From a virus: DNA of 59,154 nt. A program made the translations under genes and the position numbers. Positions 1,097 through 43,891 of the stretch are shown here, in pieces (position 1 is the stretch's first letter; each line of letters starts with the position of its first letter). A model generated the notes under the pieces. The model ran no database searches. It was not told the DNA's origin and saw nothing but the letters and a program-made list of their open reading frames with translations. The stretch covers positions 1 to 59,154 of the IMG/VR virus record IMGVR_UViG_3300034072_000679; one strand, written 5' to 3'.

Positions 1097-1220
1097 CCGG
1101 CTCGATCAGCGGCAGGCCCATCACGATCCGGGCGTAGTTGCGATCCCGCCGGATTGCGTTCAGCCAGACCTCGATCCGGCGGCCCTTGTCGTTGTTGAAG
1201 TTGTACCCTTGCCCGGCCAT
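1026..1220 (-). CDS. Small hypothetical protein
   Basis: Internal ATG at 1220 shares TAATG with the primase stop; 64 codons. Confidence 0.45.
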   Translation of the reverse strand: MAGQGYNFNNDKGRRIEVWLNAIRRDRNYARIVMGLPLIEPVRTEVRRTAERLGHRPTLTSLED

Positions 1221-3709
1221 TACAAGCCCTCCGGGTCGAGGTAGTCGCGGATGGCATCGCCTCGGGCGATCTCGTCCTCGGGCCACGCCCACGGCTTCAT
1301 GGACCAGTACTGGCGCTTCTCGCCGTTGACCTTGAAGCGACCGAGCAACGTGAAGCCGTATTGGCTCAGGAGGCGGCTCAGGGCCTTGCTCCGGGGTGCG
1401 AGAGCATCCGTGCCCATGAAGTGATCGGCGAGCTTGCCGCTGTCCAGCAGGAACTCGCTGTAATCGGGCTGGTCACTGGCCTCCAGCGTATCTTCCAGCG
1501 CCGTGACCTCCTCGGACTTGTTGAGCAGGATCATTTCGCGGCGATAGCTCGACTTCGGCGCACGAGCCTTCGGGTTGAAGTCGGGGCTGATATCCCGCAG
1601 CAAGAAGAACTGCCGGAGCGCACCCGCAAACTGGAGGATCGCGAACAGCCGGTCGTAGTAATGCGGGTTCTGAGACTTGAACAGGTCCAGATCGGTTGAC
1701 CGCTGGAACCGGGTGAAGATCGGGAAGATACGGCTATCCTCCTCACCAACCGGCATAGCGTCCTTCACGTTCGCCGTCATGATGTAGTTCATGGTGTTGA
1801 CGACCGAGTAGAGGTTCGTCTGCATCCGCCGGATCGAGACCTTGTGGTTCGTAATCATCGGCTTGAGGGTGTTGATAGCGTCGAAGCGATTGTTGCCGTG
1901 CAGGCGCACGTCCTCGATGAAGCACACCAGAGCGTTTTCCGCCCACGGGTTGTACTTCTCCTCCAGCGCGTTGCCCGCGATCAGGTTGACGTTGTTCTCG
2001 CCCAGAACGGCGCTCAGGACCGCCGAGAAGAACGACTTACCGTCGCCCTCGGCACCCTGCAACAGGATCGCCCAGTTCACCCGCTGGCCGGGGTACTTGA
2101 CGATGAAGGTCAGGAAATCGAGGAATATTCGACGGTCGTTCTCGTTCGCGATGATATGCTCAAGGTGTCCGAGGAAAATCTGAACGGCCTCCTCCTCGAC
2201 CGGCGAAAGCGGCCCCGGAAGTTCCGGGATTCCGGCTTCCGTGTAGCTGTTCGCGTAGTCGATCCCGTCGTACGAGTAGAGTGTCGGCTGTCCCGGCATG
2301 AACATGCGGTTATAGACGATGGGAATCTGATACAGATTGACGGCAGCATCGACCGGCTGCGTCTCCGGGGTGGACTTGCCTTCCAGCCGCTCGGTCGGAG
2401 TGAGCAGATAGCGGGAGTGGGCCACGTTGAAGGCAGCGCGGGTAAGCTGGGTCCGGTTGACGATGTTGAAAAGCTCGTCGGTCTCCGAGCAGTAGACCCA
2501 CGGCTTGACCCACGGCGGCGCGGAAATCATTTCGGTGTTCTCGTACCGAATCAGTTCGCGAACGAAACCGATTCTCGGGTTCTCCCCGGTGATCCGCTTC
2601 CAGTTCTGCTTGACCTTGCCAAGGATCAGTTCCCGGTTGTGTGCCGGGAGTTCGATCAGCTTGATCTGGGCGCACACAGCCGTAAGCTCGTCCACGGTCG
2701 TCGCACGGTGGATACCGTCGAGGAAGTCCTCGATCAGTTGCTTCGATTGCTGAGCCGCCGCTTCCTTGGAGAGCTTGAGGATGATCCGGCAGGTGATCGG
2801 GATATGCGCTTTGTCGCGGTTGTTGAAGGTCGGCCAGCGGTCCTCCAGAGCCTTGCGATCATAGTTATGCGCCGATTGCGACCAGCGGTCCCAGAGGTCG
2901 AAGCCCTCCTGCCCGCCGTCGTACTGGTGGTACAGCGCCATGCCGATCTGGAACCACGTATCGTGGTCCGTGTTGTCCTCGATCAGGAACAGCCTGCGCT
3001 CAAGCTCCTCGTCGCCGATCTGGACCTTGGGCCGGTAGGCGCTGAAAGGATCGTCGTCGTCATCGTCAATCGGGTTGACCAGACGGGTGATCGCGTTCTT
3101 CGTTTTCTTGGTCCAGCCGTGTTCGAGGAACAGGCTGAGGACCTTTTCCTTGATCTCCTTGGCCTGATCGTGCGTCAGGATCGGGAGTTCCGACCGAGGC
3201 AGGGTCAACGGAGAAGCCCCCAGCCACTTATAGGGCTTGCCCGTATCCGGGTGGACATGCGCCGCGACGAACTGCTGGCCGTCGGCGAGGATTTCGACCT
3301 TGGAGTCCCGGCCCTGACTGTCCAGCCACATGCCGGTATCGACCTTCGGGAACATGCCGCCCTTCTCTTGGCGGTAGACCCAGAGGACCTTGGGCGCGAA
3401 ACCGATTCGCTTGAGCGGAGTGTCGCCTACGACCTTGAGGATAATCTCCTGAACGCGGGCGATCATATCCTCGTCGCGGAGGTCGATGTCGATAGCCGGG
3501 ACCAGCCGGGACTTGATGCCGATCCCGTGACCACCTTTACCATCGGCGATGTAGTCGTGAACGCCTTCGACCGTACCGGCGAGCTTCTGCCAGTTCTTGC
3601 CAGCCGGGCGCTTCTCGCCCGGAATGATCGGGATGACCTCGTAACCGTTCTTGGCGATATCAACGCCAAATTCTTCCATGTAGCGCCGCGCGGCCATAGC
3701 TCCGGTCAC
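1220..3709 (-). CDS. Bifunctional primase-polymerase / SF3 (D5/P4-type) helicase
   Basis: 829 aa; N-terminal prim-pol like region (GYEVIPIIPGEKRP), PriCT-like middle (DTWFQIGMALYH), Walker A GAEGDGKS; ends DPEGL. Confidence 0.85.
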   Translation of the reverse strand: MTGAMAARRYMEEFGVDIAKNGYEVIPIIPGEKRPAGKNWQKLAGTVEGVHDYIADGKGGHGIGIKSRLVPAIDIDLRDEDMIARVQEIILKVVGDTPLKRIGFAPKVLWVYRQEKGGMFPKVDTGMWLDSQGRDSKVEILADGQQFVAAHVHPDTGKPYKWLGASPLTLPRSELPILTHDQAKEIKEKVLSLFLEHGWTKKTKNAITRLVNPIDDDDDDPFSAYRPKVQIGDEELERRLFLIEDNTDHDTWFQIGMALYHQYDGGQEGFDLWDRWSQSAHNYDRKALEDRWPTFNNRDKAHIPITCRIILKLSKEAAAQQSKQLIEDFLDGIHRATTVDELTAVCAQIKLIELPAHNRELILGKVKQNWKRITGENPRIGFVRELIRYENTEMISAPPWVKPWVYCSETDELFNIVNRTQLTRAAFNVAHSRYLLTPTERLEGKSTPETQPVDAAVNLYQIPIVYNRMFMPGQPTLYSYDGIDYANSYTEAGIPELPGPLSPVEEEAVQIFLGHLEHIIANENDRRIFLDFLTFIVKYPGQRVNWAILLQGAEGDGKSFFSAVLSAVLGENNVNLIAGNALEEKYNPWAENALVCFIEDVRLHGNNRFDAINTLKPMITNHKVSIRRMQTNLYSVVNTMNYIMTANVKDAMPVGEEDSRIFPIFTRFQRSTDLDLFKSQNPHYYDRLFAILQFAGALRQFFLLRDISPDFNPKARAPKSSYRREMILLNKSEEVTALEDTLEASDQPDYSEFLLDSGKLADHFMGTDALAPRSKALSRLLSQYGFTLLGRFKVNGEKRQYWSMKPWAWPEDEIARGDAIRDYLDPEGL
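2523..2533. repeat. GAAATSATTTC palindrome copy
   Basis: cGGAAATCATTTCGg; inside primase gene, read T-E-M-I-S on minus strand. Confidence 0.9.
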
Positions 3710-3975
3710 TCCGCGACGAAGATGTCAGGACGCAAAAATTCGCGCGGAAAGGTCTCGCGGCCCAGAAGCTCCTCGATCTTGAGACAGGTGTTGACGGTTA
3801 TGGTGCCGGTCGTGTTGAGTTGCATGTGCAGCATCGACGACGAGCCGCCGAGAGCCTGAGACAGCTTCCCGAGGCTCCCGCTTTTGTCGTGGTAGAACGC
3901 GGCCAGTCTTACGACAAACTCGGCTCTCTGGCCCGGCTCAACCCAAGCCGGGATCGGAAATTTCTCTACTGACAT
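3706..3975 (-). CDS. Helix-turn-helix DNA-binding protein (Cro/CI-like)
   Basis: 89 aa; GSLGKLSQALGGSSSMLHMQLN looks like an HTH; first gene of leftward primase operon. Confidence 0.6.
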   Translation of the reverse strand: MSVEKFPIPAWVEPGQRAEFVVRLAAFYHDKSGSLGKLSQALGGSSSMLHMQLNTTGTITVNTCLKIEELLGRETFPREFLRPDIFVAE

Positions 3976-4137
3976 GGAAAGCCCTTAGCCCTCGATTCGG
4001 CTGCAACGTGCCCGATCTGCTATTTTAACGCAAGTAAGTTTTGCCCTATTGACAGTAAATGGGGGCATGGGGCAAGTACGTGAGGCAACCCGATTCGGGG
4101 AGCGGTCGAATTATCCACAACCGGAGAAGTCAATACC
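3976..4137. promoter_or_regulatory. Divergent intergenic control region
   Basis: Lies between leftward 3975 and rightward 4138 starts; TTGACA at 4049-4054; GGGGCAAG (4069-4076) resembles the 56.4-kb iteron core. Confidence 0.4.
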
Positions 4138-4476
4138 ATGGGTATGATCGAACAGATCGCGGCGGACGTTGCCGCCATCAAGGAAATGCTGGCGAACGGT
4201 GCAGGTGCCCCGGCGGCAGCGGCGGCTGAGAAGCCGAAGCGCGCCCCGAAGGCGAAGGAGGAGAAGCCGAGCTTCACCGCCGACCAGCTTCGCGACAAGT
4301 TCCTCGAAGTCCAGCAGAAGCACGGCGATGCGGCGGCGAAGGCGTTGATCCGTGAGCAGGGCCACGAGAAGCTGGCGAACCTGATCGCCGACGCTGCCAA
4401 CTGGCAGAAGTACTGGGATGCGGCGGAGGAAAAGCTCGCCGAGGAGCCGGAAGGCGACGACAACGGCGGCCTCTGA
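4138..4476 (+). CDS. Hypothetical protein with acidic GGL C-terminus
   Basis: 112 aa; Ala/Lys-rich linker; ends EEPEGDDNGGL. Confidence 0.7.
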   Translation: MGMIEQIAADVAAIKEMLANGAGAPAAAAAEKPKRAPKAKEEKPSFTADQLRDKFLEVQQKHGDAAAKALIREQGHEKLANLIADAANWQKYWDAAEEKLAEEPEGDDNGGL

Positions 4477-4660
4477 GCCATCGAGATCGGCAGTCTGCGC
4501 GGGCGTTGATCCCGAGCCAAGCGCGGACTGCCAGCCCTCGGGTCGCACCGAGGGGCCGGGGAAGGTGAACGTGCTTCGACGACGCGTAAGCCTTCCCCGG
4601 CTTAGTTGGAGACCGGGCTACTGCGACCCAAGCCCGGTCTCCTACTAAGCCGGGGATACC
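4477..4660 (+). promoter_or_regulatory. Highly structured intergenic leader with four inverted repeats, two mutually exclusive
   Basis: Stems 4489-4532, 4534-4553, 4556-4565/4591-4600 and a 24-bp stem 4595-4618/4632-4655 ending 5 nt before the ATG at 4661. Confidence 0.6.
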
Positions 4661-5947
4661 ATGTCCGAACACCATCCGATCACTGACCAGATGCTCGCGG
4701 ACAAGAACGCCACGGGCCACTCGATCTTTGGGCCGTCTAGCGCACACCGCTGGATGCGTTGCCCGCGATCCCTTATTGCCGGACATCTGGCAGGCGACAA
4801 CCCGAGCTACTACGCGGCAGAGGGGTCCATAGCGCACTGGCTGGCCGAGGACTGGCTTCTCAATGGCAATCCTTATCGACATTTGGGCACGATCCACGAG
4901 AAAGACGGGTTCGAGATCGAGATCACCGAGGAAATGATTTCCTACGTCGAGGAGTACGTGTCGCTGGTCTCGACGATGCCCGGCAAGCACTACGTCGAAG
5001 TCAAGGTTGATCTTTCCAAATATACCCCTGTCCCCAGCTTCGGCACTTCCGATCACATTAGCGCCGAGTGGGGCATCCTGCGCGTCAAGGACCTCAAGTA
5101 CGGCAAGGTTTGGGTCGAGGCCGAAGATAACGAGCAAGGGCAGGCGTATGCTCTGGGCGCGTTCGAGGAGCTTGACTGGCTCTACAACTTCCAGACCATC
5201 GAGATTCAGATCGTCCAGCCGCGCCGGGATAACTACGATGTCTGGACCATCACCCGAGAGCAACTTCTTGAGTTCGGGGAGCGGTATCGCGAGGCCGCGC
5301 ACAAGGCGTGGGACCCGGAGGCTCCGTACAACCCGGACCCGATTGCTTGCGAGTACTGCCCGGCCCGGTTCGCCTGCCCGGCGCTCGCCGCCGTCAAGGT
5401 CAAGCTCGCGGCAGCCAGCTTCGACGATCTCGATGATACCGAGATGACCCCGTCTCAAGCCGTGGCCGTGATCGAGCAGGAAATGGTTTCCACGCCCCGG
5501 CTCCCTGCTTTCAACGAAGTCCCGGTCGAACGGCTCGCCCAGATTTACGAGTGGCGACCGATTCTGGAGAAGTATTTCCGGGAGATGTACGACTATCTGC
5601 TCAAGAAGCTGGAGATGGATGTCGAAGTTCCGGGGCAAAAACTCGGTATGGGCCGGGCGGGGAACCGTAAATGGACAGACGAGAAGGCCGCTCGTCGTAT
5701 GCTCAGAGGTCGTGGTATTACGGATATCGACATGTACGAGCAAAAATTCATTTCCCCTGCTCAGGCAGTTCAGCTATTAAGGGTTTCCCTTGGGGGCACG
5801 ATCAAGGAGAACGACGCGAGAATTGCGCCGTTCGTCTATCAGCCGCCGGGGAAAGTGACGATGATCCCAGCCAGCGACAAGCGGGAGGGGATTGCGTCAG
5901 CGGTGTCTGCGTTCGATGACGACGTAGATTCCATCGGTAACTCGTGA
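4661..5947 (+). CDS. PD-(D/E)XK nuclease, DUF2800/Cas4-like
   Basis: 428 aa; GTSDH...DLKYGK nuclease motif, C-terminal CEYCPARFACP cysteine cluster; synteny with DUF2815 and PolA. Confidence 0.8.
   Translation: MSEHHPITDQMLADKNATGHSIFGPSSAHRWMRCPRSLIAGHLAGDNPSYYAAEGSIAHWLAEDWLLNGNPYRHLGTIHEKDGFEIEITEEMISYVEEYVSLVSTMPGKHYVEVKVDLSKYTPVPSFGTSDHISAEWGILRVKDLKYGKVWVEAEDNEQGQAYALGAFEELDWLYNFQTIEIQIVQPRRDNYDVWTITREQLLEFGERYREAAHKAWDPEAPYNPDPIACEYCPARFACPALAAVKVKLAAASFDDLDDTEMTPSQAVAVIEQEMVSTPRLPAFNEVPVERLAQIYEWRPILEKYFREMYDYLLKKLEMDVEVPGQKLGMGRAGNRKWTDEKAARRMLRGRGITDIDMYEQKFISPAQAVQLLRVSLGGTIKENDARIAPFVYQPPGKVTMIPASDKREGIASAVSAFDDDVDSIGNS
4931..4941. repeat. GAAATSATTTC palindrome copy
   Basis: gGGAAATGATTTCCt-like context GAGGAAATGATTTCCTAC; read E-E-M-I-S. 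Confidence 0.9.
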
Positions 5948-5963: not shown

Positions 5964-6614
5964 ATGAGTGAGACTGCCACCCCCCGTACCGTCGTCAAGT
6001 CGGCCAAGAACGCTGCCGGTCAGACCATTGCCAAGCTCTACAGCGATGGCACGATCCTGATCGCCGATGTTCGGATCAGCTACCCCCACGTCGATAAGAT
6101 GTGGCGGAAGAACGACAAGGACACCCCGGCCTACTCGGCAACGGGCATCCTGCCGACCAAGACGCACCAGCCCGCCATCGACCTCTTGCTGGAAGTCTGT
6201 GATGACATCCTCAAGGATCGCAACAAGGGCACCGACATCAAGGATGACCTCAAGTTCATCCGCGATGGGGGTCCGACCAAGAAGCCCGAGTACGCGGGCG
6301 CTTGGATCGTCGCCAGCCGCGAAACCGAGAAGCCCACGGTCCTCCACCCGGACAAGTCCGAGATGGAATCGCCCGAGGAAATCAAGGCCAACATCAAGGC
6401 TGGCTACTACATCGACATGCTGGTCCAGCCGTGGTGGCAGGATAACGAGCATGGCAAGCGTATTAACGCGAGCCTGCGCGCCGTCCGTCTCCGCCGCGAA
6501 GGCCCGCTGATCGCTGAGGGCGGCATCTCCAAGGATCAGGCCATCGCGTCGTTCGACGATGACGACGAGGGCGGATTCGGCGGCGGTGACGACGACGATA
6601 TGGGCGGCCTGTAA
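5964..6614 (+). CDS. DUF2815-type putative ssDNA-binding protein with acidic GGL tail
   Basis: 216 aa; position between DUF2800 nuclease and PolA; ends GGGDDDDMGGL. Confidence 0.7.
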   Translation: MSETATPRTVVKSAKNAAGQTIAKLYSDGTILIADVRISYPHVDKMWRKNDKDTPAYSATGILPTKTHQPAIDLLLEVCDDILKDRNKGTDIKDDLKFIRDGGPTKKPEYAGAWIVASRETEKPTVLHPDKSEMESPEEIKANIKAGYYIDMLVQPWWQDNEHGKRINASLRAVRLRREGPLIAEGGISKDQAIASFDDDDEGGFGGGDDDDMGGL

Positions 6615-6688: not shown

Positions 6689-8863
6689 ATGGGACGCACC
6701 CGACTCCACCACGACTACGAAGTCAAGAGTGAAGTCGATCTCCTTGCTCAGGGGATCGACCTTTACTCGTCTCACCAGTCCACCAAGGTTCTCATGTGTT
6801 CGTGGTCTCTCGACGACGAACCGACCCAGCTTTGGGTCCCAGCAGAAGGGGAGCCGATACCCTCCGACCTCAAGGAGGCCCTGCGGGACCCGGAGGTCGA
6901 TAAGATTGCGTTCAACGCTCAGTTCGAGCGGTGGATCGCTTGGCGCGTCCTCAAGCGCCAGATCGGGCTGGAGATCGAGCGCACCTACAAGCCGTGGCGC
7001 TGCTCCATGGCGCTCGCCTACATGTTCTCGTTCATGGGCGGTCTCGACGACATCGCGGACCAGATGTCCCTGCGCCACCGGAAGGACCCCCGTGGCCGGG
7101 CGCTGATCCGAGAGTTCTGTATGCCCAACAAGCCGACGAAGAAGCAGCCCTTCGTCTGGCGCGACCAACACAGCGATCCCGAGGATTGGGAGACGTTCAA
7201 GAAGTACTGTATCCGAGACAATGAATCGGAGAAAGAGCTTTGGTCCAAGCTGATTAAGTTCGGGGTCCCGGACTTCCAGTGGGACCTGTACGAGCTTGAC
7301 CAGATCATCAACGACCGGGGCCTCCCGATTAACCGCCGGTTCGTCGAGAACGCACTGGCAATCGCAGGGCGTCGTAAGACGGAACTCATTTCCGAGCAGA
7401 ACCGGATCACAGGTCTCGCGAACGCCAACAGCGGCGCTCAGCTTCTCCCGTGGCTGATCGACCGGGGCTACCCGTACGAAAACCTCCAGAAACAGAACAT
7501 AGTCAAGCTGCTGGCGGCAGAGGAGGAGGAAGTCCGCAACCCCTCGCCGACCTACGACTACGAGCAGAGAAAGCTCGTACCGAACAGCTACCCGGAGGCG
7601 TACTTCAATCCGCTGGGTCAGGTGGAGGGCAACGCTGTCCTGACGGCAGAGTGCCGGACTGTCCTGCGGATGCGGCAGGCATCGAGCAAGACTTCGACGA
7701 CCAAGTACGAAGCGACCATGGACCGGCTCGCCGACGACGACCGCTTGCGCCACTGTTTCCAGTACGCAGGCGGCTCGCGGACGAACCGCTGGGCCGGTCG
7801 GGCGCTCCAGCCGCAGAACCTCCCCAGAACGCCAAAATGGCTTGAGCCGGAGGACTACATCAACTTTGACCGGCTCGACTACTGCAATAGCCTGATCGAA
7901 GCCGGAGATTACGCCACTCTGGGCGTGTTCGCGGGCGAACAGATGGACGCGGTGGCCGGATGCGTCCGATCCACGATTCAGGCTTCCGAAGGCAAGAAGC
8001 TCGTTGTCAGCGATCTCTCCTCGATTGAGTCGGTGGTGATCTTCTGGATCACGGATTGCGAGCGCGGCTTGAATGTGTTCTGGAGTGGCAAGTGCGCTTA
8101 CAAGGACTTCGCGACCGATCTGTATGGTGTGCCCTATGAGGAAGTCACCAAGGCGCAGAGATCGGGCGCTAAGCCTGCGGTGTTGGGCGCAGGCTATCGT
8201 CTGTCAGGCGGCGAGCTACGAGACGGCGAGAAAACCGGCCTCTGGGCGTACGCCGAGAACATGGGTATCCAGATGACGCGCGAGGAGGCCAACCGCGCCG
8301 TGGATGTGTTCCGGGATACCTACAGCGAGATCAAGAACGCTTGGTACCAGATCGAGGATACCATCGAGCGCGCCATGGCGGCGGGCGGCAAGATCGTGAA
8401 GTGGGGCCATCTGGAGTTCCAGATCGTCAAGCCTTTCCTGCGCGTTGGGCTGCCGTCAGGCCGGTCTATGTGGTACTACCAGCTTCGGGTCGAGAAGTAC
8501 GAGGCAGAGGGTCGCTACGGCCCGTACATGCGGACCAATATCTCGTACATGGGAAAGTGCCAGATCACGCAGCAATGGAAGCGTATCGAGAGCCACGGCG
8601 GCAAGTTCATCGAGAACTTCGTGCAGGCCCTCGCCCGCGACATCCTCGGTTTCGGGATGCTGGCGGCGCACGAGGCAGGCTACTACATCTGCGGGCATGT
8701 TCACGACGAAATCATTTCCGAGGAGGACGAGGACGACGAGGTCCACAACCTCGACGGCTTGCGCCATTGCATGACTAAAGCTATCCAAGAGAAATACGCC
8801 TTCCTGCGTACCATGCCGCTCAACGCTGCCGGGTATGAGGGTCGAGTTTACAAGAAGGATTGA
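6689..8863 (+). CDS. Family A DNA polymerase with N-terminal 3'-5' exonuclease region
   Basis: 724 aa; DLSSIESVV (motif A), RSGAKPAVLGAGY (motif B), HVHDEI (motif C), QPQNLPR. Confidence 0.9.
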   Translation: MGRTRLHHDYEVKSEVDLLAQGIDLYSSHQSTKVLMCSWSLDDEPTQLWVPAEGEPIPSDLKEALRDPEVDKIAFNAQFERWIAWRVLKRQIGLEIERTYKPWRCSMALAYMFSFMGGLDDIADQMSLRHRKDPRGRALIREFCMPNKPTKKQPFVWRDQHSDPEDWETFKKYCIRDNESEKELWSKLIKFGVPDFQWDLYELDQIINDRGLPINRRFVENALAIAGRRKTELISEQNRITGLANANSGAQLLPWLIDRGYPYENLQKQNIVKLLAAEEEEVRNPSPTYDYEQRKLVPNSYPEAYFNPLGQVEGNAVLTAECRTVLRMRQASSKTSTTKYEATMDRLADDDRLRHCFQYAGGSRTNRWAGRALQPQNLPRTPKWLEPEDYINFDRLDYCNSLIEAGDYATLGVFAGEQMDAVAGCVRSTIQASEGKKLVVSDLSSIESVVIFWITDCERGLNVFWSGKCAYKDFATDLYGVPYEEVTKAQRSGAKPAVLGAGYRLSGGELRDGEKTGLWAYAENMGIQMTREEANRAVDVFRDTYSEIKNAWYQIEDTIERAMAAGGKIVKWGHLEFQIVKPFLRVGLPSGRSMWYYQLRVEKYEAEGRYGPYMRTNISYMGKCQITQQWKRIESHGGKFIENFVQALARDILGFGMLAAHEAGYYICGHVHDEIISEEDEDDEVHNLDGLRHCMTKAIQEKYAFLRTMPLNAAGYEGRVYKKD
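8708..8718. repeat. GAAATSATTTC palindrome copy
   Basis: GACGAAATCATTTCCGAG in PolA, directly after motif C; read D-E-I-I-S. Confidence 0.9.
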
Positions 8864-8865
8864 CG

Positions 8866-9675
8866 ATGCGCCTGTTCTACCACCCTGAAAGCGATAGCCT
8901 GTTCCTCTCTGAGCCGGGAGACTGGCAGAACTCGGCAGACGGCGCGCTCTCCGAAGATGTCAGCGATGACCCGAAGTTCCTTAATCTGGCTACGCTGGAG
9001 GATATCGACGTGAGCCTGATCGAGCCGCTGGAAAGCAGGCCCGCCAAGGCCGTCGGGATGGCGGGAGCGATCACCGAGGCGATGAAGAAGTGGGCGCGCA
9101 AGCCTGCTGATCTCTACCCCACGCCAGTCGATTGCACCTACAGCCTGTTGCCGCATATCGCCGATCTGGTCCCCCCTGACGCGAAAGTGTGGGAGCCTGC
9201 TTGCGCGGACGGCCAGATGGTCAGGCCGCTTGAGCAGTTCGGCTACCGCGTCACGGCTACCGATCTGCGGCCTGACGTGACGGGCGGGGTTGGCGGGATC
9301 GACTTCCTTGATCCCGTCTCTCCTTACCACGATCAGTCGTACGATCTCGTGGCGACCAATCCTCCCTTCGTGGCCGCTGACGCTTTTATCCGGCAAGCTC
9401 TGGAGCAGGCCCCGGTCGTAGTCATGCTCCTCAAGGCGCAGTACTGGAACACGAGGAATCGGAAGAAGCTGTTCCGTGAGACCAAGCCTTACAAGGAGCT
9501 TAACCTGACGTGGCGGCCCGCTTTCCTTGAGAAGGAGCGCGGCAAGTCACCTCTCATGGACTGCATGTGGGTTGTCTGGGTTCGCGGCCACCAAGGGCCT
9601 TGCACTACGGAGATGATTGACCGGCTGCTGGAGTGCCCGGTCAACGTCGGCGCGATGGACATGGGCGGCCTGTGA
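8866..9675 (+). CDS. SAM-dependent DNA methyltransferase (NPPF type), orphan
   Basis: VWEPACADGQ (motif I-like) and LVATNPPF (motif IV); ATG at 8866 after AGAAGGA; ends AMDMGGL. Confidence 0.7.
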   Translation: MRLFYHPESDSLFLSEPGDWQNSADGALSEDVSDDPKFLNLATLEDIDVSLIEPLESRPAKAVGMAGAITEAMKKWARKPADLYPTPVDCTYSLLPHIADLVPPDAKVWEPACADGQMVRPLEQFGYRVTATDLRPDVTGGVGGIDFLDPVSPYHDQSYDLVATNPPFVAADAFIRQALEQAPVVVMLLKAQYWNTRNRKKLFRETKPYKELNLTWRPAFLEKERGKSPLMDCMWVVWVRGHQGPCTTEMIDRLLECPVNVGAMDMGGL

Positions 9676-10441: not shown

Positions 10442-12190
10442 ATGTTGACCCTAGAGCAGTTCCATCAGTACCAATGGGACGGGTTGGCGCATTGCCACCT
10501 GCACCCGTACTGCGGCTTGTATTACGACGCAGGGTTGGGCAAGACTGCCATCGGCCTGACCTATCTCGTGCAACGGCTCAAGCATCTGCATGTCAGCCGC
10601 CGGGCGCTGGTGATCGCGCCTATCCGAGTTGCCTGCCAGACGTGGCCCAACGAGCTTGCTGAGTGGCAGCATCTCGTGGACACCGAGTACCAGCTTATCC
10701 GGGCGGAGGACACCGACCCCGAGGTCAAGGAGTTCCGGAAGGACGCATACACCCGCGCTCGATCCGGAGGTCTGGAGAACTGGGAGCTTGATGTCTATGA
10801 GGGGCTTTGCCGGGCCTCTCTGGAGCGCAAGTGGACCGAGTTCTGGACTGCCGGTCTGTCTCCGGTTTTCCCTCGCCTGACCGACATGTACGAGTTCGAC
10901 CGGCTCGCGAAGCACAACCGCTGGCTTCACGCTCACGGCGGTCTGCCGCCGGAGGAGGCTGACCGGGCAGCCGGGACGCTTACGACCCAGTTCAAGGACC
11001 GCCTGCGCCGGGCGCAACTTCGCAAGGACGTGCCGCTCCATTTTATCAACCGAGAGGCGCTGCCTTGGCTCGTGGATGTCCTCAAGGAGGAGCGCCGAGG
11101 CTGCCCGTATGATGACGCGATCTATGACGAGGCCAGCGATCTCGGGGACCACAACACCGAGCGGTTCAAGGCCATGCGCGCTCTGCGCCGGGAGTTGAAG
11201 TCGTTTATCCAGATGACCGCGACACCAGCCGCAGAGGGCTACCAGAAGTTGTTCAGCCAGCGATGGCTCATGGACACCGGGGAGCTATGGGGCAACGCGA
11301 TCACGTACTGGCGGGACCAGCACTTCACCTACCAGAGCAAGACGTTCAGCTACAAGCTCAAGAAGGGCCACGACAAGATCATCTCGACCCAGATGGCCGA
11401 TCTGTGCCTTGTGGCGAAAGCCGAGGATCACCTGCCTGCCGTCGCTACAGGATGGGCCGACCTGACCCGCAAGATCGAGCTTGGACCTGAGCTTCGGGAG
11501 ATGGAGCGTGAGTTCATCGAGAGCCGGATTCTGCGCCTGCCAGACAGCGGTAAGTTCGACAAGCTGCCGGACAGCCCTGACGAGTTCATCGACGCAGACA
11601 ACCCGGCGAGCCTGAGCCAGAAGCTCCTCCAGTTCTGTTCTGGCGCAGTCTACGACAAGGACAAGCGGGCGCGAGCGATCCACGATCATAAGATCGAGGA
11701 GCTACGGCAATTGATTGACGAGCTACAGGGTGAGCCGATCCTGCTGGTTTACTGGTGGCAATCTAGCCTCTCCCGTCTGCGGAAAGCGTTTCCGAAGATG
11801 CAAGTCATGGACCGGCAGGGCAGTCAGCAGGACGCATGGAACAAGGGCAAGATCGGTCTGCTTGCAGTACACCCGCAAGGCAGCGAGTTCGGTCTCAACC
11901 TCCAGAAGGGACCGGGCCATGATATCGCGATCTTCGACATGTTCTGGTCCTACGAGAAGTGGTACCAGATACACAAGCGCCTCGCTCGCCAAGGCCAGAC
12001 GCGCCCGGTCCGCTCGTGGCCGCTGGTAGTCAAGGGGTCGGCAGACGAGGTTGCGGTCAAACGGCTGCAAGCGAAAGAGGATGCACAGAACGCGCTTTTC
12101 CGCTATATCCAGAAACTTCGGTCGGAAATCACAGGAGTCGAACATGCCCAGACCAACGATAGAGCCTCACTTGCAGACGCTTTTGACTAG
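10442..12190 (+). CDS. SNF2-family helicase
   Basis: 582 aa; GLGKT (motif I), IYDEASDL (DEAS box), C-terminal helicase lobe. Confidence 0.85.
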   Translation: MLTLEQFHQYQWDGLAHCHLHPYCGLYYDAGLGKTAIGLTYLVQRLKHLHVSRRALVIAPIRVACQTWPNELAEWQHLVDTEYQLIRAEDTDPEVKEFRKDAYTRARSGGLENWELDVYEGLCRASLERKWTEFWTAGLSPVFPRLTDMYEFDRLAKHNRWLHAHGGLPPEEADRAAGTLTTQFKDRLRRAQLRKDVPLHFINREALPWLVDVLKEERRGCPYDDAIYDEASDLGDHNTERFKAMRALRRELKSFIQMTATPAAEGYQKLFSQRWLMDTGELWGNAITYWRDQHFTYQSKTFSYKLKKGHDKIISTQMADLCLVAKAEDHLPAVATGWADLTRKIELGPELREMEREFIESRILRLPDSGKFDKLPDSPDEFIDADNPASLSQKLLQFCSGAVYDKDKRARAIHDHKIEELRQLIDELQGEPILLVYWWQSSLSRLRKAFPKMQVMDRQGSQQDAWNKGKIGLLAVHPQGSEFGLNLQKGPGHDIAIFDMFWSYEKWYQIHKRLARQGQTRPVRSWPLVVKGSADEVAVKRLQAKEDAQNALFRYIQKLRSEITGVEHAQTNDRASLADAFD

Positions 12191-12383
12191 CGAAGCAACG
12201 ATCATCGGATCACTGTTTCAGGTCAACAGGGATGGATCGGGGCCGTTTTACTGCTCGCTTTACGCGCCGGGGCATAGTATCAGTGCGGTGATCTGTCATG
12301 GCAGCGTCTACGCGACCGGGGAGGGCGAGACCCCCGAGGACGCGATCTACACGGCTCGCGAGAAAATGTGGAAAGGACTTTAG
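12144..12383 (+). CDS. Hypothetical protein
   Basis: ATG 12144 six nt after AGGAG; 79 aa; overlaps SNF2 end by 47 nt. Confidence 0.5.
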   Translation: MPRPTIEPHLQTLLTSEATIIGSLFQVNRDGSGPFYCSLYAPGHSISAVICHGSVYATGEGETPEDAIYTAREKMWKGL

Positions 12384-13064
12384 GTGGCTTCGGCGGCGCG
12401 AAAGCAGGCTGATTACGCGGATACGGCTCGGGCAGACGACTCGGAGACCTCGGCCATCATCTACGAGGGCGCGAGCGTCCGGCAGCTTGCCTTGATGTTC
12501 AAGATGGACCCCAAGGTCGTGACCAGTAAGGTCTCCAGCCTCGTGCCGGTCGGTCGCCGCCGGGGCACCCCGATCTACTCGATCCCGGAGGCCGCTTCCC
12601 GGCTCGTGAAGCCCGGCTACGACATCGAGCGGGTCATCATGAACATGAACCACTCGGACTTGCCTCCGATGCTCCAGAACGCTTTCTGGAGCGCCCAGAA
12701 AACCCGTGCGTCGTACGAGGAGATGATTGGTGATCTCTGGCGCACCAGCCGCGTCGTGCGGCTGATCTCTGTCCTGTTCAACAGCGTCCGGATGATCTTG
12801 CTCCTGCTCCCGGACACTATCGAGCGTGAAGCCGGGCTGAGCCGGGAGCAAAAGGCCGTGGTCCGGCGCGTCGTCGAAGGGGCGCTGGTCGAAGGCCGCA
12901 AGGCAATCATGAAGGAGTTTGAAGGTTATGGCGACGGCCCCGAGTACGACGCAGGATGCGGACCTGACGGCCCTCTCCTCGTTCGTGAACACGAGCCGGT
13001 TGACGACCGAGGAACTGGAGTTCCTAGCGCCTCGGAAGCCGAGGACGAGTATAACGGGCTATAG
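12384..13064 (+). CDS. terS: Terminase small subunit (DUF1441/Nu1-like, tentative)
   Basis: GTG directly after upstream TAG; lies immediately upstream of GpA-type TerL; ends EAEDEYNGL. Confidence 0.55.
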   Translation: MASAARKQADYADTARADDSETSAIIYEGASVRQLALMFKMDPKVVTSKVSSLVPVGRRRGTPIYSIPEAASRLVKPGYDIERVIMNMNHSDLPPMLQNAFWSAQKTRASYEEMIGDLWRTSRVVRLISVLFNSVRMILLLLPDTIEREAGLSREQKAVVRRVVEGALVEGRKAIMKEFEGYGDGPEYDAGCGPDGPLLVREHEPVDDRGTGVPSASEAEDEYNGL

Positions 13065-20295: not shown

Positions 20296-20706
20296 ATGGC
20301 ACTCAAGCTGCTTCTCGTGGCTTTCACCACGACCCGCGAAATCGAGGGCACCGAGCGCCGCGTCCGCTTCGACGCGAAGAAGGTGGTCGATCTCAGCGAA
20401 TCCGAACTGGAACTGCTGGACAAGCTCACCGTGGCGACTGGCAAGCTCCACTACCGCGAGCCGATCAGCGAAGGCGGCAAGGTCGTCGCCTCCGAGCCGG
20501 AAATCGTCCAGCTTCCCGACTACGAAGGGCAGGACGTGCCCATGGGCAGCAAGAACGTCGATCATCTCAAGGCGTACCTGACCTTCCACGGCATCGCTTT
20601 CGAGGCGAGCGCCAAGAAGGCCGAACTGCTCGCGCTGGCGCAGGCTCACGAAGCCGGTGAAGGCGACGACGACGCTGACGACGGCGACGTGGACGGCGGC
20701 CTCTAA
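20296..20706 (+). CDS. Head-module protein with HeH/SAP-like motif and acidic GGL tail
   Basis: NVDHLKAYLTFHGIAFEASAKKAELLALAQ resembles a HeH/Rho-N fold; ends DDADDGDVDGGL. Confidence 0.6.
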   Translation: MALKLLLVAFTTTREIEGTERRVRFDAKKVVDLSESELELLDKLTVATGKLHYREPISEGGKVVASEPEIVQLPDYEGQDVPMGSKNVDHLKAYLTFHGIAFEASAKKAELLALAQAHEAGEGDDDADDGDVDGGL

Positions 20707-20714: not shown

Positions 20715-21125
20715 ATGGTGTCTCTCGCAGACATCAAGGCGAAAGCACGGCGAGCCATCCACGGACGGCTCGCCGTTTCCGCGTCTCTCGTGGACGTGGC
20801 ACACCCGAGCGGCCTGATCTTCGCGGACGACTATGAGGGCGAGACCCTGACCGTCCGGTACCACAACAAGCTGGATCGCGCGGGCGGACTGAATGACGAC
20901 TACGCCGAGATCATCGACGGGATCGACCGGCTCGTTTTCCACGACGACAACGTGGCCGCAGTTTCCGCCGCTCTGGTCGCCAACGGGGAAGCCCCTCTGG
21001 CGCTCGCTCGGGGCGCTCAGGTAACGATCCCGGATTACAAGGGCCTCACCTTCGCTCTGGACAGCCAGCAGCCTCCAGACGGCCCCGGAGAGGTCGTGTG
21101 GGTCGTGGCCCGCAAGCGGGGCTAG
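20715..21125 (+). CDS. Head-tail connector/adaptor (by position)
   Basis: 136 aa ORF between head and tail modules. Confidence 0.5.
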   Translation: MVSLADIKAKARRAIHGRLAVSASLVDVAHPSGLIFADDYEGETLTVRYHNKLDRAGGLNDDYAEIIDGIDRLVFHDDNVAAVSAALVANGEAPLALARGAQVTIPDYKGLTFALDSQQPPDGPGEVVWVVARKRG

Positions 21126-39819: not shown

Positions 39820-41064
39820 TCAGAGGCCGCCCATGCCGTCATCCGCCGATTCCGGGGCGCTGGTGGCTTCCGGCGGGGTAGCCGGGGGTTCGGTAGCCGG
39901 AGCGGGCTTCTTCGCGTTCTGGGGCTTCTGAGCGGGCTGCTTGGGCTTGGCCTTCTCAGGGGTCTTGCCCTTCGGGGCGGCCTTGCCCTTGGCAGCAGGC
40001 TTCTTGGCAGCCGCCTCGGCGAGCAGCTTCTTCTCCGCTTCGCGCTTGGCAGCGGCCTCGGCCTTCGCCTTCTCGGTAGCCGCCTTCTTGGCAGCGGCTT
40101 CCTCGGCCTTGGCCTTCTTCTCCGCTTCGCGCTTGGCAGCGGCCTCGGCCTTCGCCTTCTCGGCGGCAGCCTTGGCGGCCTCGGCTTCGCGATCCACGAC
40201 ATGCACCGTGATCTCGATCTTGCCGTCCTCGGCCAGCTTGTCGCCGTCGCCGATCTGGACCTCGGCCCGGATCGCCTTCGCCATGTTCTTGAGGATGTCG
40301 CCCATCACGTCGCCCGAACCGAAGTTCATGGTGATCGCGACCTTCTTCATCTTCGGCCCGGTCGGCGCGCTCGCGGTCGTCTTGGGGGTGGCCTTCGCCT
40401 TGCCCTGCTCCTCGGCCTTCTTGATGCGCGCGGTGATCTCGGCAGCCGCGTCCTTGGTGCCGTGCTTACGAACCAGCTTGACGGCTTCGGCCCCGGCGAT
40501 CTTGCCACTGGCGACGGCCTTCTTGACGGCCTGATTCGCGTCGGCGAGGACGAACAGGTTATCGACGTGGCGGGTCGTGCGGCCCAGTGCCGTCGCGATC
40601 TCGTCCTTCGACATCCCGAGACCCTGCATACGACGGACGACCGCCGCAAGCTCGACCATGTTCAGGCGCTCGCCCGCGTTACCGTGGGCAAGGTGGATGG
40701 TCAGGTCGCGCACCGTCGCGCCGTCCTTGGCCCACGCGACCGGCAGGCCGTCGGGGAACTCGGCACCATCGAGCAGAGCCGCCTTGGCCGCGTCGAAACG
40801 GTGTTCGCCGTCGTAGATGTAGACGGTGTCGTCGCCGGGCAGCATGGTCACGGCGAACGGCTTGTCGTCGAAAAAGCCGTTCGCGACGATGCTTTCGGCG
40901 ATCCCGGCGACACGCTCGCTGTAGTCGGCATCCTTGACGCGGGTGTTGAAGCCCGGCAGCACGGCGAGGTTGTCGAGCGCCACGCGCGTCGGCGCGTTTT
41001 CGGGGCGCACGAACGTCATGGTCGTGTCGAACTTGTCAGCGGGCAGATTGATTGCGGTGGTCAT
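39820..41064 (-). CDS. ParB/sulfiredoxin-like N-terminal domain protein with Lys/Ala/Glu-rich repeat tail
   Basis: LPGFNTRVKD, IYDGEHRFDAAKAA (GxxR box), central HTH-like region, AEKAKAEAAAKREAEKK repeats; ends ADDGMGGL. Confidence 0.75.
   Translation of the reverse strand: MTTAINLPADKFDTTMTFVRPENAPTRVALDNLAVLPGFNTRVKDADYSERVAGIAESIVANGFFDDKPFAVTMLPGDDTVYIYDGEHRFDAAKAALLDGAEFPDGLPVAWAKDGATVRDLTIHLAHGNAGERLNMVELAAVVRRMQGLGMSKDEIATALGRTTRHVDNLFVLADANQAVKKAVASGKIAGAEAVKLVRKHGTKDAAAEITARIKKAEEQGKAKATPKTTASAPTGPKMKKVAITMNFGSGDVMGDILKNMAKAIRAEVQIGDGDKLAEDGKIEITVHVVDREAEAAKAAAEKAKAEAAAKREAEKKAKAEEAAAKKAATEKAKAEAAAKREAEKKLLAEAAAKKPAAKGKAAPKGKTPEKAKPKQPAQKPQNAKKPAPATEPPATPPEATSAPESADDGMGGL
40027..40163. 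repeat. 50-bp exact direct repeat, two copies 87 bp apart, inside the ParB-like gene
   Basis: CTTCTTCTCCGCTTCGCGCTTGGCAGCGGCCTCGGCCTTCGCCTTCTCGG at 40027-40076 and 40114-40163. Confidence 0.85.
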
Positions 41065-41097
41065 GGTATCGGTACTCCTAGATTCCGGGTTTCACAT

Positions 41098-41403: not shown

Positions 41404-41480
41404 AGATTGTTCGACCTTTCGACCTTCAAGAACGAGACGACATCTGCGCCCGAAGAACGCAGATGTCAACCCGGAATCTG

Positions 41481-41491
41481 GAAATGATTTC
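41481..41491. repeat. GAAATSATTTC palindrome copy
   Basis: CTGGAAATGATTTCGCGC; intergenic between 41500..42033 and the GapR-like gene. Confidence 0.9.
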
Positions 41492-41499
41492 GCGCCGGA

Positions 41500-42033: not shown

Positions 42034-42043
42034 GTCGATCTCC

Positions 42044-42697: not shown

Positions 42698-42918
42698 ATT
42701 CCGATCCTTTCGTACTCTTTGTCAAGGCGGTCGAGCGCAGCGAAATCATTTCGGGCTTCTGCCTCCCGCCAGCGCCGTTTCCAGTTGCCATACTGAAACA
42801 CGAAAGACGCTCGGCAGCAGGCCCCGTAGAAGCTGGGCGGGAACTCGACCTCTCCCCGCCCAGCCAGATCAACCCAGATCGGGTCGATTACAGTTCCATC
42901 GTACTCCCGGAGGCACAT
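42694..42918 (-). CDS. Small hypothetical protein
   Basis: Internal ATG at 42918; upstream part of ORF 42694..43110 is Arg-rich off-frame sequence. Confidence 0.45.
   Translation of the reverse strand: MCLREYDGTVIDPIWVDLAGRGEVEFPPSFYGACCRASFVFQYGNWKRRWREAEARNDFAALDRLDKEYERIGM
42742..42752. repeat. GAAATSATTTC palindrome copy
   Basis: AGCGAAATCATTTCGGGC; read R-N-D-F on minus strand. Confidence 0.9.
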
Positions 42919-43202
42919 CCATGGGTCTCCATCATCTCGCGGATCAGGTCGGCTTCTTCGACCTTGCCGCCGGAATCTTCTATCCGGTCGAGCAGCTTGT
43001 ACACAGCAGCCGTGAACTCGGTCAGCCCTTGCATCAACGGCGAGTGATCGTTGTCGCCGAGCAAGAAGGCCCGAGTCGGGATGCCTCCGAACTTCCGGGC
43101 AGCGATGCACCGGGCCGCCTTCTGCTCGCGGGTGCCGGGTGCCATCTCGAACTCCTCGGCGGTCGGATAGGGGTAAGGGTTTGCGCGCTTATCTTCGGCC
43201 AC
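42888..43202 (-). CDS. Hypothetical protein
   Basis: GTG 43202 six nt after AGGAGA, just downstream of MazG stop. Confidence 0.5.
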   Translation of the reverse strand: MAEDKRANPYPYPTAEEFEMAPGTREQKAARCIAARKFGGIPTRAFLLGDNDHSPLMQGLTEFTAAVYKLLDRIEDSGGKVEEADLIREMMETHGCASGSTMEL

Positions 43203-43212
43203 GGTGGCTCTC

Positions 43213-43629
43213 CTAGATCGACTTGCCGCCCGGTTGGCGGCGGTTCTCGGGCTTGTGATCGGCGCGGCTGGCGTTGTACTCCAGCTTCTCGACGAGCGCG
43301 CCGCCGATGTCATAGCCGAGGCCGCCCGCGAGGTCCATAAGCCGGATGATCGTGTCGGCGATCTCGACCTCCGCCATCGGGCGATGCGGCAGCTTGTCGT
43401 CCTGCAAGCCCTTGCGGTACCCTTCCAGAGCCTCGGAGACCTCGCTATGCACGAGCGCCAGCATCTCCGGGACGTTGCGCTTCGGGCCGGGCGTGGTGTG
43501 CCGGAGGTCGGCCCCGGTGTGCAGATCGGTCCACCACCCGGCATCGAGGTTGCGCTGGTGGATGATGTCGCGCAGACGATTGAGCGACTGGCCGAGGAGG
43601 GGGAGGTCAGAGTCCGTTGTCGGGGTCAT
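43213..43629 (-). CDS. mazG: MazG-like nucleoside triphosphate pyrophosphohydrolase
   Basis: LVHSEVSEALEGYRK...EIADTIIRLMDLA (EExxE...D pattern). Confidence 0.8.
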   Translation of the reverse strand: MTPTTDSDLPLLGQSLNRLRDIIHQRNLDAGWWTDLHTGADLRHTTPGPKRNVPEMLALVHSEVSEALEGYRKGLQDDKLPHRPMAEVEIADTIIRLMDLAGGLGYDIGGALVEKLEYNASRADHKPENRRQPGGKSI

Positions 43630-43891
43630 GGGTAGACGTGTCCTTCTTCTTGCGGATGCTCAGGCCCTTCTCCTTGCGGAGAAACCAAGGCCAGAACCGG
43701 GAAAAAATCTTGACGTGCGGCTTGGCATACCGCGCGTCGTCGTGCATCGCCCGCCGGAGCGGGATCAGCTTGGGTAGATGGCTCTCGACGTGGTACGCGA
43801 GGTCCTTCTCGGTCGCCCGGCTGGTAGGGGGCACGGAGACTTCCACCACCACCCGGAGCTTGCGCCACGGTCGCTCGCGCATATCAGTCAT
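43607..43891 (-). CDS. Small basic hypothetical protein ending DPDNGL
   Basis: ATG 43891 after GGAGGAGG; 94 codons. Confidence 0.5.

Follow-up and report, generated by a model that had tools for sequence, protein, structure and literature searches.

In phage T7, acidic C-terminal tails are carried by gp2.5 and gp4 only (ending in EDGDF and NDTDF), and both tails bind, and compete for, the front and TBD basic patches of gp5. In bacteria, a single tailed protein, SSB (tip DDDIPF), is met by pockets on many client proteins. In phage T4, the gp45 clamp is the docking site for a C-terminal peptide of the gp43 polymerase, gp33 and gp55, an arrangement that couples replication to late functions. Encapsulins, which have an HK97-fold shell, use cargo-loading peptides rich in G, S and L that form short C-terminal tags on unrelated proteins.

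[quoted passage not shown] It differs in the tip (D-F in T7, G-G-L here and DEV or DDL in sister genera), in having a primase-helicase of the PrimPol/D5 rather than the gp4 type, in the number of tailed proteins (6 to 11 here and in relatives versus 2 in T7), and in the range of bearers, which include the small terminase subunit (TerS), a ParB-like protein, a methyltransferase, an exonuclease, a resolvase and a head-module protein; the receptor here is a candidate only. Compared with bacterial SSB, the arrangement is inverted, the many tailed proteins implying one or few pockets, and the tip sequence differs. As with gp45, functionally different phage proteins have a common C-terminal peptide that would lead to one hub on DNA, but the tails are acidic rather than of the hydrophobic LDFL type, and the proteins of the phage that were scanned included no recognisable sliding clamp. 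The likeness to encapsulin cargo lies in a short tag on unrelated proteins, whereas the present tails are acidic and, by position, homologs of the replisome tail of SSB. No earlier description of such a shared tail was found in the literature.

The shared tail and its bearers

In the window (the whole 59,154-nt stretch of DNA analysed, with about 79 genes rather than the roughly 90 proteins of an earlier note), at least six unrelated DNA-handling proteins have the same short acidic C-terminal tail, …D-D-x-N/M-G-G-L, in which a disordered, variable linker is followed by an acidic run and then by a fixed tip, D-[DE]-x-[NM]-G-G-L-COOH. GGL directly precedes the stop codon in five ORFs (4138-4476, 5964-6614, 8866-9675 and 20296-20706 on the plus strand, 39820-41064 on the minus strand), all of which were confirmed as genuine genes with coding-type GC3 (0.78–0.87). 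Among six-frame stop-to-stop ORFs of at least 30 aa, GGL ends were found in these five genes only and in no ORF of a non-coding frame. With P(GGL) = 4.7e-4 from the window's own amino-acid composition, the occurrence of this end on 5 of 79 proteins has p = 5e-10 (4e-6 when corrected for 8000 tripeptides). The earlier note had judged chance implausible, and the case is stronger than it was put there. GL ends 10 of the 79 proteins (p = 8e-11), and the DNA word GGCGGCCTSTRA was observed 5 times versus 0.04 expected.

All the annotated bearers are DNA-binding or DNA-processing proteins. The gp2.5-like/DUF2815 SSB (5964..6614, +) has the tip DDDDMGGL (6591-6611), with nearly invariant residues G214, G215 and L216 among homologs, and a conserved internal element, SFDDDDEGGFGG (~6549-6584). 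Its AF2 model has an OB core with pLDDT above 90 and about 35 disordered residues at the end. A small helical protein (4138..4476, +; tail EGDDNGGL at 4453-4473) is encoded between the primase and exonuclease genes; its low-confidence model places helices at 48–102 and likewise leaves the tail disordered, so that for both proteins the tail is predicted to be disordered. The DNA methyltransferase (8866..9675, +; phrog_799) ends in AMDMGGL (9652-9672), and its orthologs in MGGL, FGGL, LGGL or DHGL with varying codons. Its inclusion in the set holds for the orthologs of the window's clade, while the methyltransferases of phages Carli and SS2019XI have no tail; the tail on this enzyme is a clade-specific acquisition. 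The protein directly after the major capsid gene, at the lambda FI position (20296..20706, +; tail GDVDGGL at 20683-20703), matches the HeH domain PF12949 at E = 1.3e-6, with 28.5 bits just below the curated cut-off of 28.9, and has orthologs ending in DPDGGL, DDSGL, DANGGL or HRDGGL. The ParB-like protein (39820..41064, −; PF17762, phrog_1033) has a long low-complexity linker before the tail ADDGMGGL (39823-39843).

Two further proteins carry close variants that are kept in orthologs. TerS (12384..13064, +; DUF1441, phrog_141), whose gene overlaps the TerL start by ~137 nt, has the tail AEDEYNGL (13041-13061), and all its orthologs have an xGL end. The primase-helicase (1220..3697, −; PrimPol, PriCT-2 and DUF5906 from Pfam and PHROG matches) ends in YLDPEGL (1223-1243), a weaker form of the tip, and its orthologs in LDP[DE][GSA]L. 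Both proteins follow the lineage covariation described below, which vindicates their inclusion in the earlier note. A third variant named there, DPDNGL on a small ORF without family matches (43607..43891, −), is present, but the sole ortholog recovered ends in KKDNTV, without a tail, leaving its membership of the set doubtful and unsupported.

The earlier note had also counted KGL, RGL and PGL as further xGL ends. All three are without an acidic run, and they are better explained as by-products of ribosome-binding sites (Shine-Dalgarno) or as weak or uncertain gene calls than as tails. In the small ORF ending in NTRGL (58431..58628, +), the last codons, AGG GGG TTG, lie directly before an overlapping start at 58628 and read AGAGGT or GGAGGT in relatives; this end was rejected as a tail, since the ribosome-binding site of the gene that follows accounts for it. 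KGL belongs to a small ORF ending at 12383, upstream of TerS, in which AAAGGA encodes the ribosome-binding site of the next gene; these codons, AAAGGA and AGGGGG in the two ORFs, correspond to GGAGG in relatives. The PGL end is that of 54505-55047.

Conservation and lineage covariation of the tip

Comparison of orthologs had been named as a check on the motif, and in large ortholog sets the tip is near-invariant while the linkers vary. GGL ends 98 of 106 SSB homologs, GL ends all 103 homologs of the 4138-4476 protein (GGL in 99) and all 120 ParB homologs (93 GGL, 19 NGL, 4 KGL, 3 HGL, 1 AGL), and the right-aligned logos of these three unrelated families agree on D-[DE]-x-[NM]-G-G-L-COOH. Independently predicted public homologs end at the same residue, so mis-called stop codons do not account for the motif. 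The tip codons of orthologs are synonymous alternatives (GGC/GGT/GGG/GGA and CTC/CTG/CTA/TTG). Since the tip is kept while linkers vary and synonymous codons differ, selection on the tail acts at the protein level.

The ending changes with the lineage: the window's clade has GL, as do BcepNazgul and Carli; DEV is the ending of Enc34 and of the Chi-like SPN19, and DDL that of the Pseudomonas phage SS2019XI. The numbers of proteins ending in GL/EV/DL are 10/0/0 in the window, 11/0/0 in Nazgul, 0/9/0 in Enc34 and 0/0/10 in SS2019XI (chi-square p = 5e-13). The lineage tip is carried by largely the same orthologs, namely the primase-helicase (Carli LDLTGL, Nazgul GCGL, Enc34 DDEDEV, SPN19 WEDEV, SS2019XI DEDDDL), the small protein upstream of the exonuclease (positional equivalents Carli DDDEL, Enc34 ORF3 EEEEV, SPN19_070 EEDDV, SS2019XI gp74 GEDL), SSB, TerS (Carli LDLDGL, Nazgul DDPAAGL, Enc34 and SPN19 DDDEV, SS2019XI ADDDL) and the post-capsid protein (Carli DDDL, Nazgul SASGL, Enc34 ORF17 ADDEV, SPN19_056 AEDEV, SS2019XI gp08 GDEDL), and often also by ParB (Carli EDLSGL, Nazgul TAEGL, SS2019XI DDDDL), an exonuclease or a helicase. 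Further bearers in relatives are exonuclease, helicase, RusA-type and RdgC-like recombination proteins. In Nazgul, RusA and TerS have the heptapeptide DDPAAGL in common, and its last six residues, DPAAGL, also end two hypothetical proteins with different codons. No shared tail was found in the unrelated control phage FoX5. The Xylella phage Sano, a member of the family, has the tail on 2–3 proteins only, so the system can be dispensed with or replaced.

That the same orthologs change their tip together by genus is hard to explain without a common, co-evolving reader, and a different genus-specific ending on largely the same set of proteins indicates that the bearers most likely plug into one common partner. 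The near-invariant tip and this covariation favour the short linear C-terminal motif, of the T7 gp2.5/gp4 kind and with one putative hub, that had been postulated. A processed Gly-Gly end as in ubiquitin- or Pup-like systems, also raised in the earlier note, is refuted by the DEV and DDL ends that the orthologous tails have in other phages.

Candidate receptors and alternative explanations

We consider it fairly probable that the tailed proteins have a short linear docking motif in common at their C-termini, an expanded form of the T7 type, read by one co-evolving receptor; we infer all three of its elements, that the motif is a binding motif, that the receptor is single, and which protein it is. 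The receptor is probably phage-encoded, with the family A DNA polymerase (6689..8863, +; PF00476) as first candidate, by analogy with T7, and the OB-fold surface of SSB as second. The polymerase ends in VYKKD and is tail-less in every lineage compared. No alignment of it to T7 gp5 was obtained and it has no sequence relative in the PDB, so the basic patches of T7 could not be mapped onto it. Docking of TerS and a head-module protein on a polymerase is not obvious biology, and the same tail may have several receptors.

An inverted SSB interactome, in which enzymes that have to work on SSB-coated DNA bear SSB-like tails that dock on the OB-fold surface of the phage SSB or compete with ssDNA for it, so that they are loaded at SSB-ssDNA or displace SSB locally, seems to us rather unlikely. 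C-termini of DUF2815 SSBs do dock on neighbouring OB domains in crystals: the structures of Enc34 ORF6, T7 gp2.5 and two more DUF2815 proteins show the C-terminal segment placed within the concave beta-sheet of the neighbour, with 842 Å2 buried. SSB is also abundant and found at every site of phage DNA processing, and the bearers resemble the clients of E. coli SSB (primase, helicase, exonuclease, resolvase, recombination mediator). However, the last 11 residues, tip included, could not be seen in the crystal of Enc34 ORF6, the AF2 model built from a 56-sequence alignment did not dock the tail on its own core (pLDDT 48–66), and strong self-competition would be expected because SSB bears the tail too. 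A model without any common hub, in which each tail is an acidic DNA mimic working in cis, so that a protein auto-inhibits its DNA-binding surface and gains in specificity, and in which the endings are convergent, is improbable. It would suit a set of bearers that all bind or process DNA, the dsDNA binding of Enc34 SSB without its tail, and the competition of the gp2.5 tail with ssDNA for the same surface, as reported in work cited by the Enc34 paper, but electrostatic mimicry needs no invariant G-G-L-COOH tip and leaves unexplained why one tip occurs on unrelated folds in one genome and another on their orthologs in another genus.

Quite improbable, in our view, is an address for packaging that would send tailed proteins to the portal, into the procapsid or to the large terminase subunit, comparable to encapsulin cargo loading or to TerS C-termini docking on the large subunit. 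Small terminase C-termini do generally bind the large subunit, TerS and the post-capsid protein of the late head module are tailed in at least five lineages, and the lambda-like order of the head module (W, B, C, D and E annotations in SPN19) places the HeH protein at the FI position; yet the ancestral bearers are SSB and the primase-helicase, the tails of which serve the replisome in T7, and one would not expect SSB, primase, exonuclease or TerS in the virion. It is highly improbable that the tail binds a protein of the host, whether a hub (the beta-clamp or the clients of the host's SSB C-terminus) or, in the manner of a degradation tag, a protease or adaptor of the ClpX/Lon type: an acidic tail with a hydrophobic end does resemble the bacterial SSB C-terminus, as in the control phage SSB ending DDDQIPF, and E. 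coli Pol IV ends in …LGL, but no tail has a QL[SD]LF or QLxLxL clamp pattern, the tips vary by phage genus (GL, DEV, DDL) whereas the clamp and SSB-Ct pockets are highly conserved in proteobacteria, and GL is shared by phages whose hosts differ widely, those of Burkholderia and of Sphingomonas and a metagenomic clade. The portal or procapsid and a protease tag had been offered as possible hubs in the earlier note, and no positive evidence for either emerged. It is hardly credible that the tails arose at the nucleotide level, through codon bias, embedded ribosome-binding sites, gene overlap or a repeated DNA word beside stops. All five window tails use GGC GGC CT[CG], the 9-mer GGCGGCCTS is over-represented (18 versus 3.8 expected), overlap with TerL freezes the last TerS codons, and small KGL, RGL or [FWY]GGL ORFs (upstream of TerS; 58431-58628) have GGAGG-type codons just before the next start. 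Against this, the peptide is kept in orthologs with other synonymous codons, the next start lies 75 nt past the SSB stop and 185 nt past that of 4138-4476, non-coding frames are free of GGL ends, and the corresponding tails of other phages end in DEV or DDL, for which the codons are unrelated. For the six core proteins this reading is largely refuted; the small basic xGL ORFs are the only case in which it holds.

Proposed spread of the docking tail

Under the preferred reading of a docking motif with one co-evolving receptor, the tail would have spread, in Casjensviridae-like siphophages, from SSB and the primase-helicase to further DNA-handling proteins, reaching TerS, the ParB-like protein, the methyltransferase, the small pre-exonuclease protein and the post-capsid HeH protein. 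The bearers would compete for, or be recruited to, one receptor surface located on phage DNA during its replication and packaging, possibly a basic patch whose pocket would accept the last, aliphatic residue together with its carboxylate. If this is true, factors for replication, recombination, modification and packaging would be gathered at one place.

Genome of the window phage

Bases 1–127 of the window are identical to bases 59028–59154, and this 127-nt terminal repeat indicates a circularly closed assembly, so that the window is the entire genome of a phage, about 59.0 kb (~59,027 bp) long. Its G+C content is 62%. Judged by gene content and order, the phage is a Casjensviridae-like siphophage. 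The synteny and homology shared with phages BcepNazgul (hereafter Nazgul), Enc34, Chi, Sano and Carli comprise the primase, exonuclease, DUF2815 SSB, family A polymerase, helicase and lambda-like head module. The replication region encodes a leftward primase-helicase of the PrimPol/D5 type (1220–3697), a PD-(D/E)XK-type exonuclease (4661–5947), the DUF2815/gp2.5-like SSB (5964–6614), the polymerase (6689–8863), a methyltransferase (8866–9675), a small endonuclease and a helicase (10442–12190), and the head module consists of the small terminase subunit TerS (12384–13064), TerL, a gpW-like adaptor, portal, protease/scaffold, decoration protein and major capsid protein. GenBank phages have negligible nucleotide similarity to the window, and protein identities to Carli, Nazgul and Sano are 25–53%.

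Several other features were observed. An iteron-like intergenic block between leftward early genes and rightward ORFs (49624–50084) contains three to four 23-nt units (…CACACCGCTACAGAGGGGGG…, 49624–49856) and five tandem 30-nt units (GGCTGGGGCCGCCGGGCGATCAAGGCGAGG, 49935–50084), and may function as an origin or as an array with a regulatory role. A 36-nt repeat (CCTGAGATCACACAAGGAGTCCAAGCTATG) containing a ribosome-binding site and ATG precedes three ORF starts (51240–51275, 51448–51483 and 54367–54402) in a G+C-rich region at 50–56 kb, where the ORFs score weakly as coding sequence and lack Pfam matches. The single tRNA called by ARAGORN (tRNA-Asp, 20894–20981, minus strand) lies inside a coding gene (20715–21125, plus strand) and is probably a false positive, since Rfam gave no match there or elsewhere in its search of the window. 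The Rfam and ARAGORN results have no bearing on the protein C-termini.

Acidic C-terminal tails with a shared tip

The earlier note had listed five ORFs ending in Gly-Gly-Leu followed by a stop codon, and all five were recovered, each with coding-type codon composition. They encode a small protein between the primase and the exonuclease (4138–4476, plus strand; the 4138 protein), the SSB, the methyltransferase, the post-capsid HeH protein (20296–20706, plus strand) and ParB (39820–41064, minus strand). Against the proteome's own composition, the occurrence of GGL at the end of 5 of the 79 proteins has p = 5e-10 (4e-6 when corrected for all tripeptides), and a GL end is found on 10 of the 79 (p = 8e-11). 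When stop-to-stop ORFs of ≥30 aa were taken from all six frames, GGL ends were confined to the same five.

At the DNA level, all five tips are spelled GGC GGC CT[C/G], and the 12-mer spanning tip and stop occurs 5 times versus 0.04 expected. An origin of the tails in DNA, through a repeated word (GGCGGCCTSTRA), overlap with a ribosome-binding site or gene overlap, was nevertheless rejected for the core set, because orthologs spell the peptide with other codons (GGT, GGG or GGA and CTA or TTG in related contigs) and because the next gene begins well downstream of the stop in two cases (185 nt away for the 4138 ORF and 75 nt for the SSB). Such an explanation is retained for the small xGL ORFs that had been noted beside the acidic ones: their KGL (small ORF ending at 12383) and RGL (58431–58628) ends are basic, and the codons themselves serve as the Shine-Dalgarno sequence of the gene that abuts them downstream.

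Comparison of ortholog C-termini supported the tail proposed in the earlier note, which is kept in the orthologs of the SSB, ParB, the 4138 protein, the HeH protein, the methyltransferase and TerS. Of the 106 SSB homologs, whose identities go down to 47%, 98 end in GGL, several of the exceptions being truncated entries. GL is the ending of every one of the 120 ParB homologs (93 GGL, 19 NGL, 4 KGL, 3 HGL and 1 AGL) and of all 103 homologs of the 4138 protein (99 GGL and 4 SGL). In IMG/VR contigs, the orthologs of the HeH protein, the methyltransferase and TerS all end in xGL, with a linker before the tip that varies in length and sequence. Right-aligned logos of the SSB, ParB and 4138 families converge on D(-6)-[DE](-5)-x-[NM](-3)-G-G-L-COOH. 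The SSB, of the gp2.5/DUF2815 OB-fold type (PF10991, E = 1.4e-10; phrog_112, E = 1.2e-26), ends in ...FDDDDEGGFGGGDDDDMGGL; in its AF2 model, built from a 56-sequence alignment, the OB core has pLDDT >90 and the last ~35 residues are disordered (pLDDT 48–66). In the model of the 4138 protein the tail is disordered as well, although the mean pLDDT of 58 is too low for the fold itself to be informative. An invariant tip, a variable linker and disorder are characteristic of short linear motifs located at free C-termini, and the shared endings are almost certainly real and under protein-level selection.

Two proteins with variant ends, TerS (…EDEYNGL) and the primase-helicase (…LDPEGL, with …LDPD[GSA]L in relatives), had also been proposed as members, and their membership is borne out by covariation among lineages. 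The product of 43607–43891 (…DPDNGL) was dropped, the tail being absent from the single ortholog recovered, and the PGL end (54505–55047) belongs to a weak gene call.

Some of these proteins have further features at or near their ends. TerS and the TerL reading frame have about 137 nt in common (12928–13064), and the last TerS codons (AAC GGG CTA) are rare in this genome and frozen across all relatives; the TerS tail is thus doubly constrained. The C-terminus of the exonuclease is acidic and conserved, but its tip (…DDDVDSIGNS) is not the shared one. Exonuclease orthologs in Nazgul (DDGL), Enc34 and SPN19 (DDEV) and SS2019XI (DDL) bear the lineage tip, and the end in the window clade may represent a tail that has diverged or an alternative one. 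In the SSB, a near-invariant acidic element (SFDDDDEGGFGG, residues 196–207, encoded by 6549–6584) precedes the variable linker; with its acidic run followed by G-G-hydrophobic it is similar to the terminal motif, of which it may be a second copy inside the protein. SSBs of the DUF2815/gp2.5-like type also occur in phages of Staphylococcus, Streptococcus, Bacteroides, Corynebacterium and Brevibacillus, among others. An 87-nt stretch of the ParB gene, encoding part of a Lys/Ala/Glu-rich region, is tandemly duplicated (39980–40153), and many ParB homologs align over about 70% of the query only.

Lineage-specific tips

Largely the same orthologous set carries the tail in related phages, with a tip specific to each genome. 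In the Sphingomonas phage Carli, the ends are DDDLDDL (SSB), GLDLDGL (TerS), GLDLTGL (primase), EDLSGL (ParB), DDDEL (the protein at the 4138 position) and TDDDL (post-capsid protein), and several small proteins end in …LDGL or …LEGL. In Nazgul, GL is the ending of 11 of 70 proteins. The heptapeptide DDPAAGL is common to RusA and TerS, and its last six residues (DPAAGL) recur on two hypothetical proteins, with codons that all differ; other ends are TAAGL (helicase), TAEGL (ParB), DDNGGL (SSB), ADDGL (exonuclease), GCGL (primase) and SASGL (post-capsid protein). The tip in Enc34 is DEV, carried by the primase, ORF3, exonuclease, SSB, TerS, post-capsid ORF17, ORF51, ORF60 (recombination-associated exonuclease) and ORF64. 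SPN19, a Chi-like Salmonella phage, has DEV on its primase, exonuclease, SSB, TerS and post-capsid protein, and EDDV on SPN19_070. In the Pseudomonas phage SS2019XI, DDL is found on the primase, exonuclease, SSB, ParB, RdgC-like protein, gp47 and TerS, with the variant EDL on gp74 and post-capsid gp08.

Proteins ending in GL/EV/DL number 10/0/0 in the window, 11/0/0 in Nazgul, 0/9/0 in Enc34 and 0/0/10 in SS2019XI (chi-square p = 5e-13). Xylella phage Sano has the tail left only on its SSB, one small protein and, internally, TerS. T7 has tails on gp2.5 (EDGDF) and gp4 (NDTDF) only, and no shared tip is present in FoX5, a phage of high GC that encodes a ParB homolog and was used as a control.

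In the DEV-tip genera (Enc34 and SPN19), a Trp residue often precedes the acidic run, as in the SSB (…EWDEDEV), the SPN19 primase (…EWEDEV), the SPN19 exonuclease (…AWDDEDDDEV) and the helicase (…VWDDEE), which suggests that these tails have a second conserved anchor.

Candidate receptors of the tails

Since a single tip is present across unrelated folds within each genome and another in the orthologs of the next genus, as expected from one co-evolving receptor or very few, we consider it reasonably likely that the tails are a shared docking motif with a common receptor. Several other readings of these ends were rejected or disfavoured. Gly-Gly conjugation of the ubiquitin or Pup type, raised in the earlier note, is incompatible with orthologs ending in DEV (Enc34 and SPN19), DDL (SS2019XI) or DGL, DDL and DEL (Carli), nor with the N, K, H, A or S found at position -2 within the clade itself; no E1, E2, JAB or PafA/Dop-type enzyme was detected among 20 proteins scanned against Pfam and 20 against PHROGs. 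The logos contain neither the Gln nor the second Leu of a beta-clamp motif (QL[SD]LF or QLxLxL). The tip of bacterial SSBs (D-D-D-I-P-F, on a homotetrameric OB-fold protein) does not match either, the tip here being GGL on an SSB of the gp2.5/DUF2815 type, unlike the FoX5 SSB, which has the canonical end DDDQIPF as the only such end in that phage. A purely electrostatic, cis-acting DNA mimic would leave the invariant, lineage-specific tip unexplained. A receptor from the host is disfavoured, because tips differ among genera and GL is common to phages of distant hosts.

[quoted passage not shown] The C-terminal Phe of gp2.5 is reported to be essential, with suppressors mapping in gene 5. As in T7, the SSB of the window phage is of the gp2.5/DUF2815 type and has a disordered acidic tail with a hydrophobic last residue, and the primase-helicase of the same phage is also tailed (LDPEGL in the window; the lineage tip in Carli, Nazgul, Enc34, SPN19 and SS2019XI). 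Unlike in T7, with its two tails, the element here is spread over 6–11 proteins, including packaging and ParB-type proteins. A phmmer search of PDB sequences with the polymerase gave no match, and BLASTP against T7 gp5 gave no usable alignment. By analogy with T7, the polymerase might be the receptor, but we regard this assignment as doubtful.

The OB surface of the SSB is the second candidate, and would make the system an inverted bacterial SSB interactome. In crystals of DUF2815 SSBs and gp2.5, C-terminal segments rest on neighbouring molecules; the AF2 model of the single-chain SSB did not place the tail on its own OB fold, a result concerning binding in cis only and uninformative for binding in trans. 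TerL or another packaging component is still in play because the tail is present on TerS and on the HeH protein, which from gene order appears to lie at the lambda-FI position.

A family-wide code, in which one phage-encoded receptor (polymerase or SSB core) reads a lineage-specific address (GL, DEV or DDL), is proposed tentatively. Replication, recombination, DNA modification, ParB-type DNA binding and packaging initiation would then be organised around that receptor as a private hub-and-spoke DNA factory, inverse in topology to the bacterial SSB interactome, which could separate the machineries of co-infecting relatives.

Full-text literature searches found no prior description of shared tails in these phages, and the paper on the Enc34 SSB structure treats the acidic tail of that SSB only. 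The T7-like element being already known, we rate as new its spread to 6–11 proteins, a hub-spoke topology that is inverted and a tip code specific to each lineage. The tail provides a cheap annotation marker for DNA-handling proteins of these phages, and lineage-specific tips could serve as orthogonal recruitment tags in engineering. Relatives of the Salmonella phage Chi and Enc34 are cultured model phages, in which the system is directly testable. The two-tail model of T7 would expand to 6–11 proteins, with partners predicted for the 4138 family and the post-capsid HeH protein. If one receptor reads the tails, the replisome, recombination enzymes, methylation, the ParB-like protein and packaging initiation would be physically linked, and the tails would constitute a simple, sequence-readable organising principle for the whole of phage DNA metabolism.
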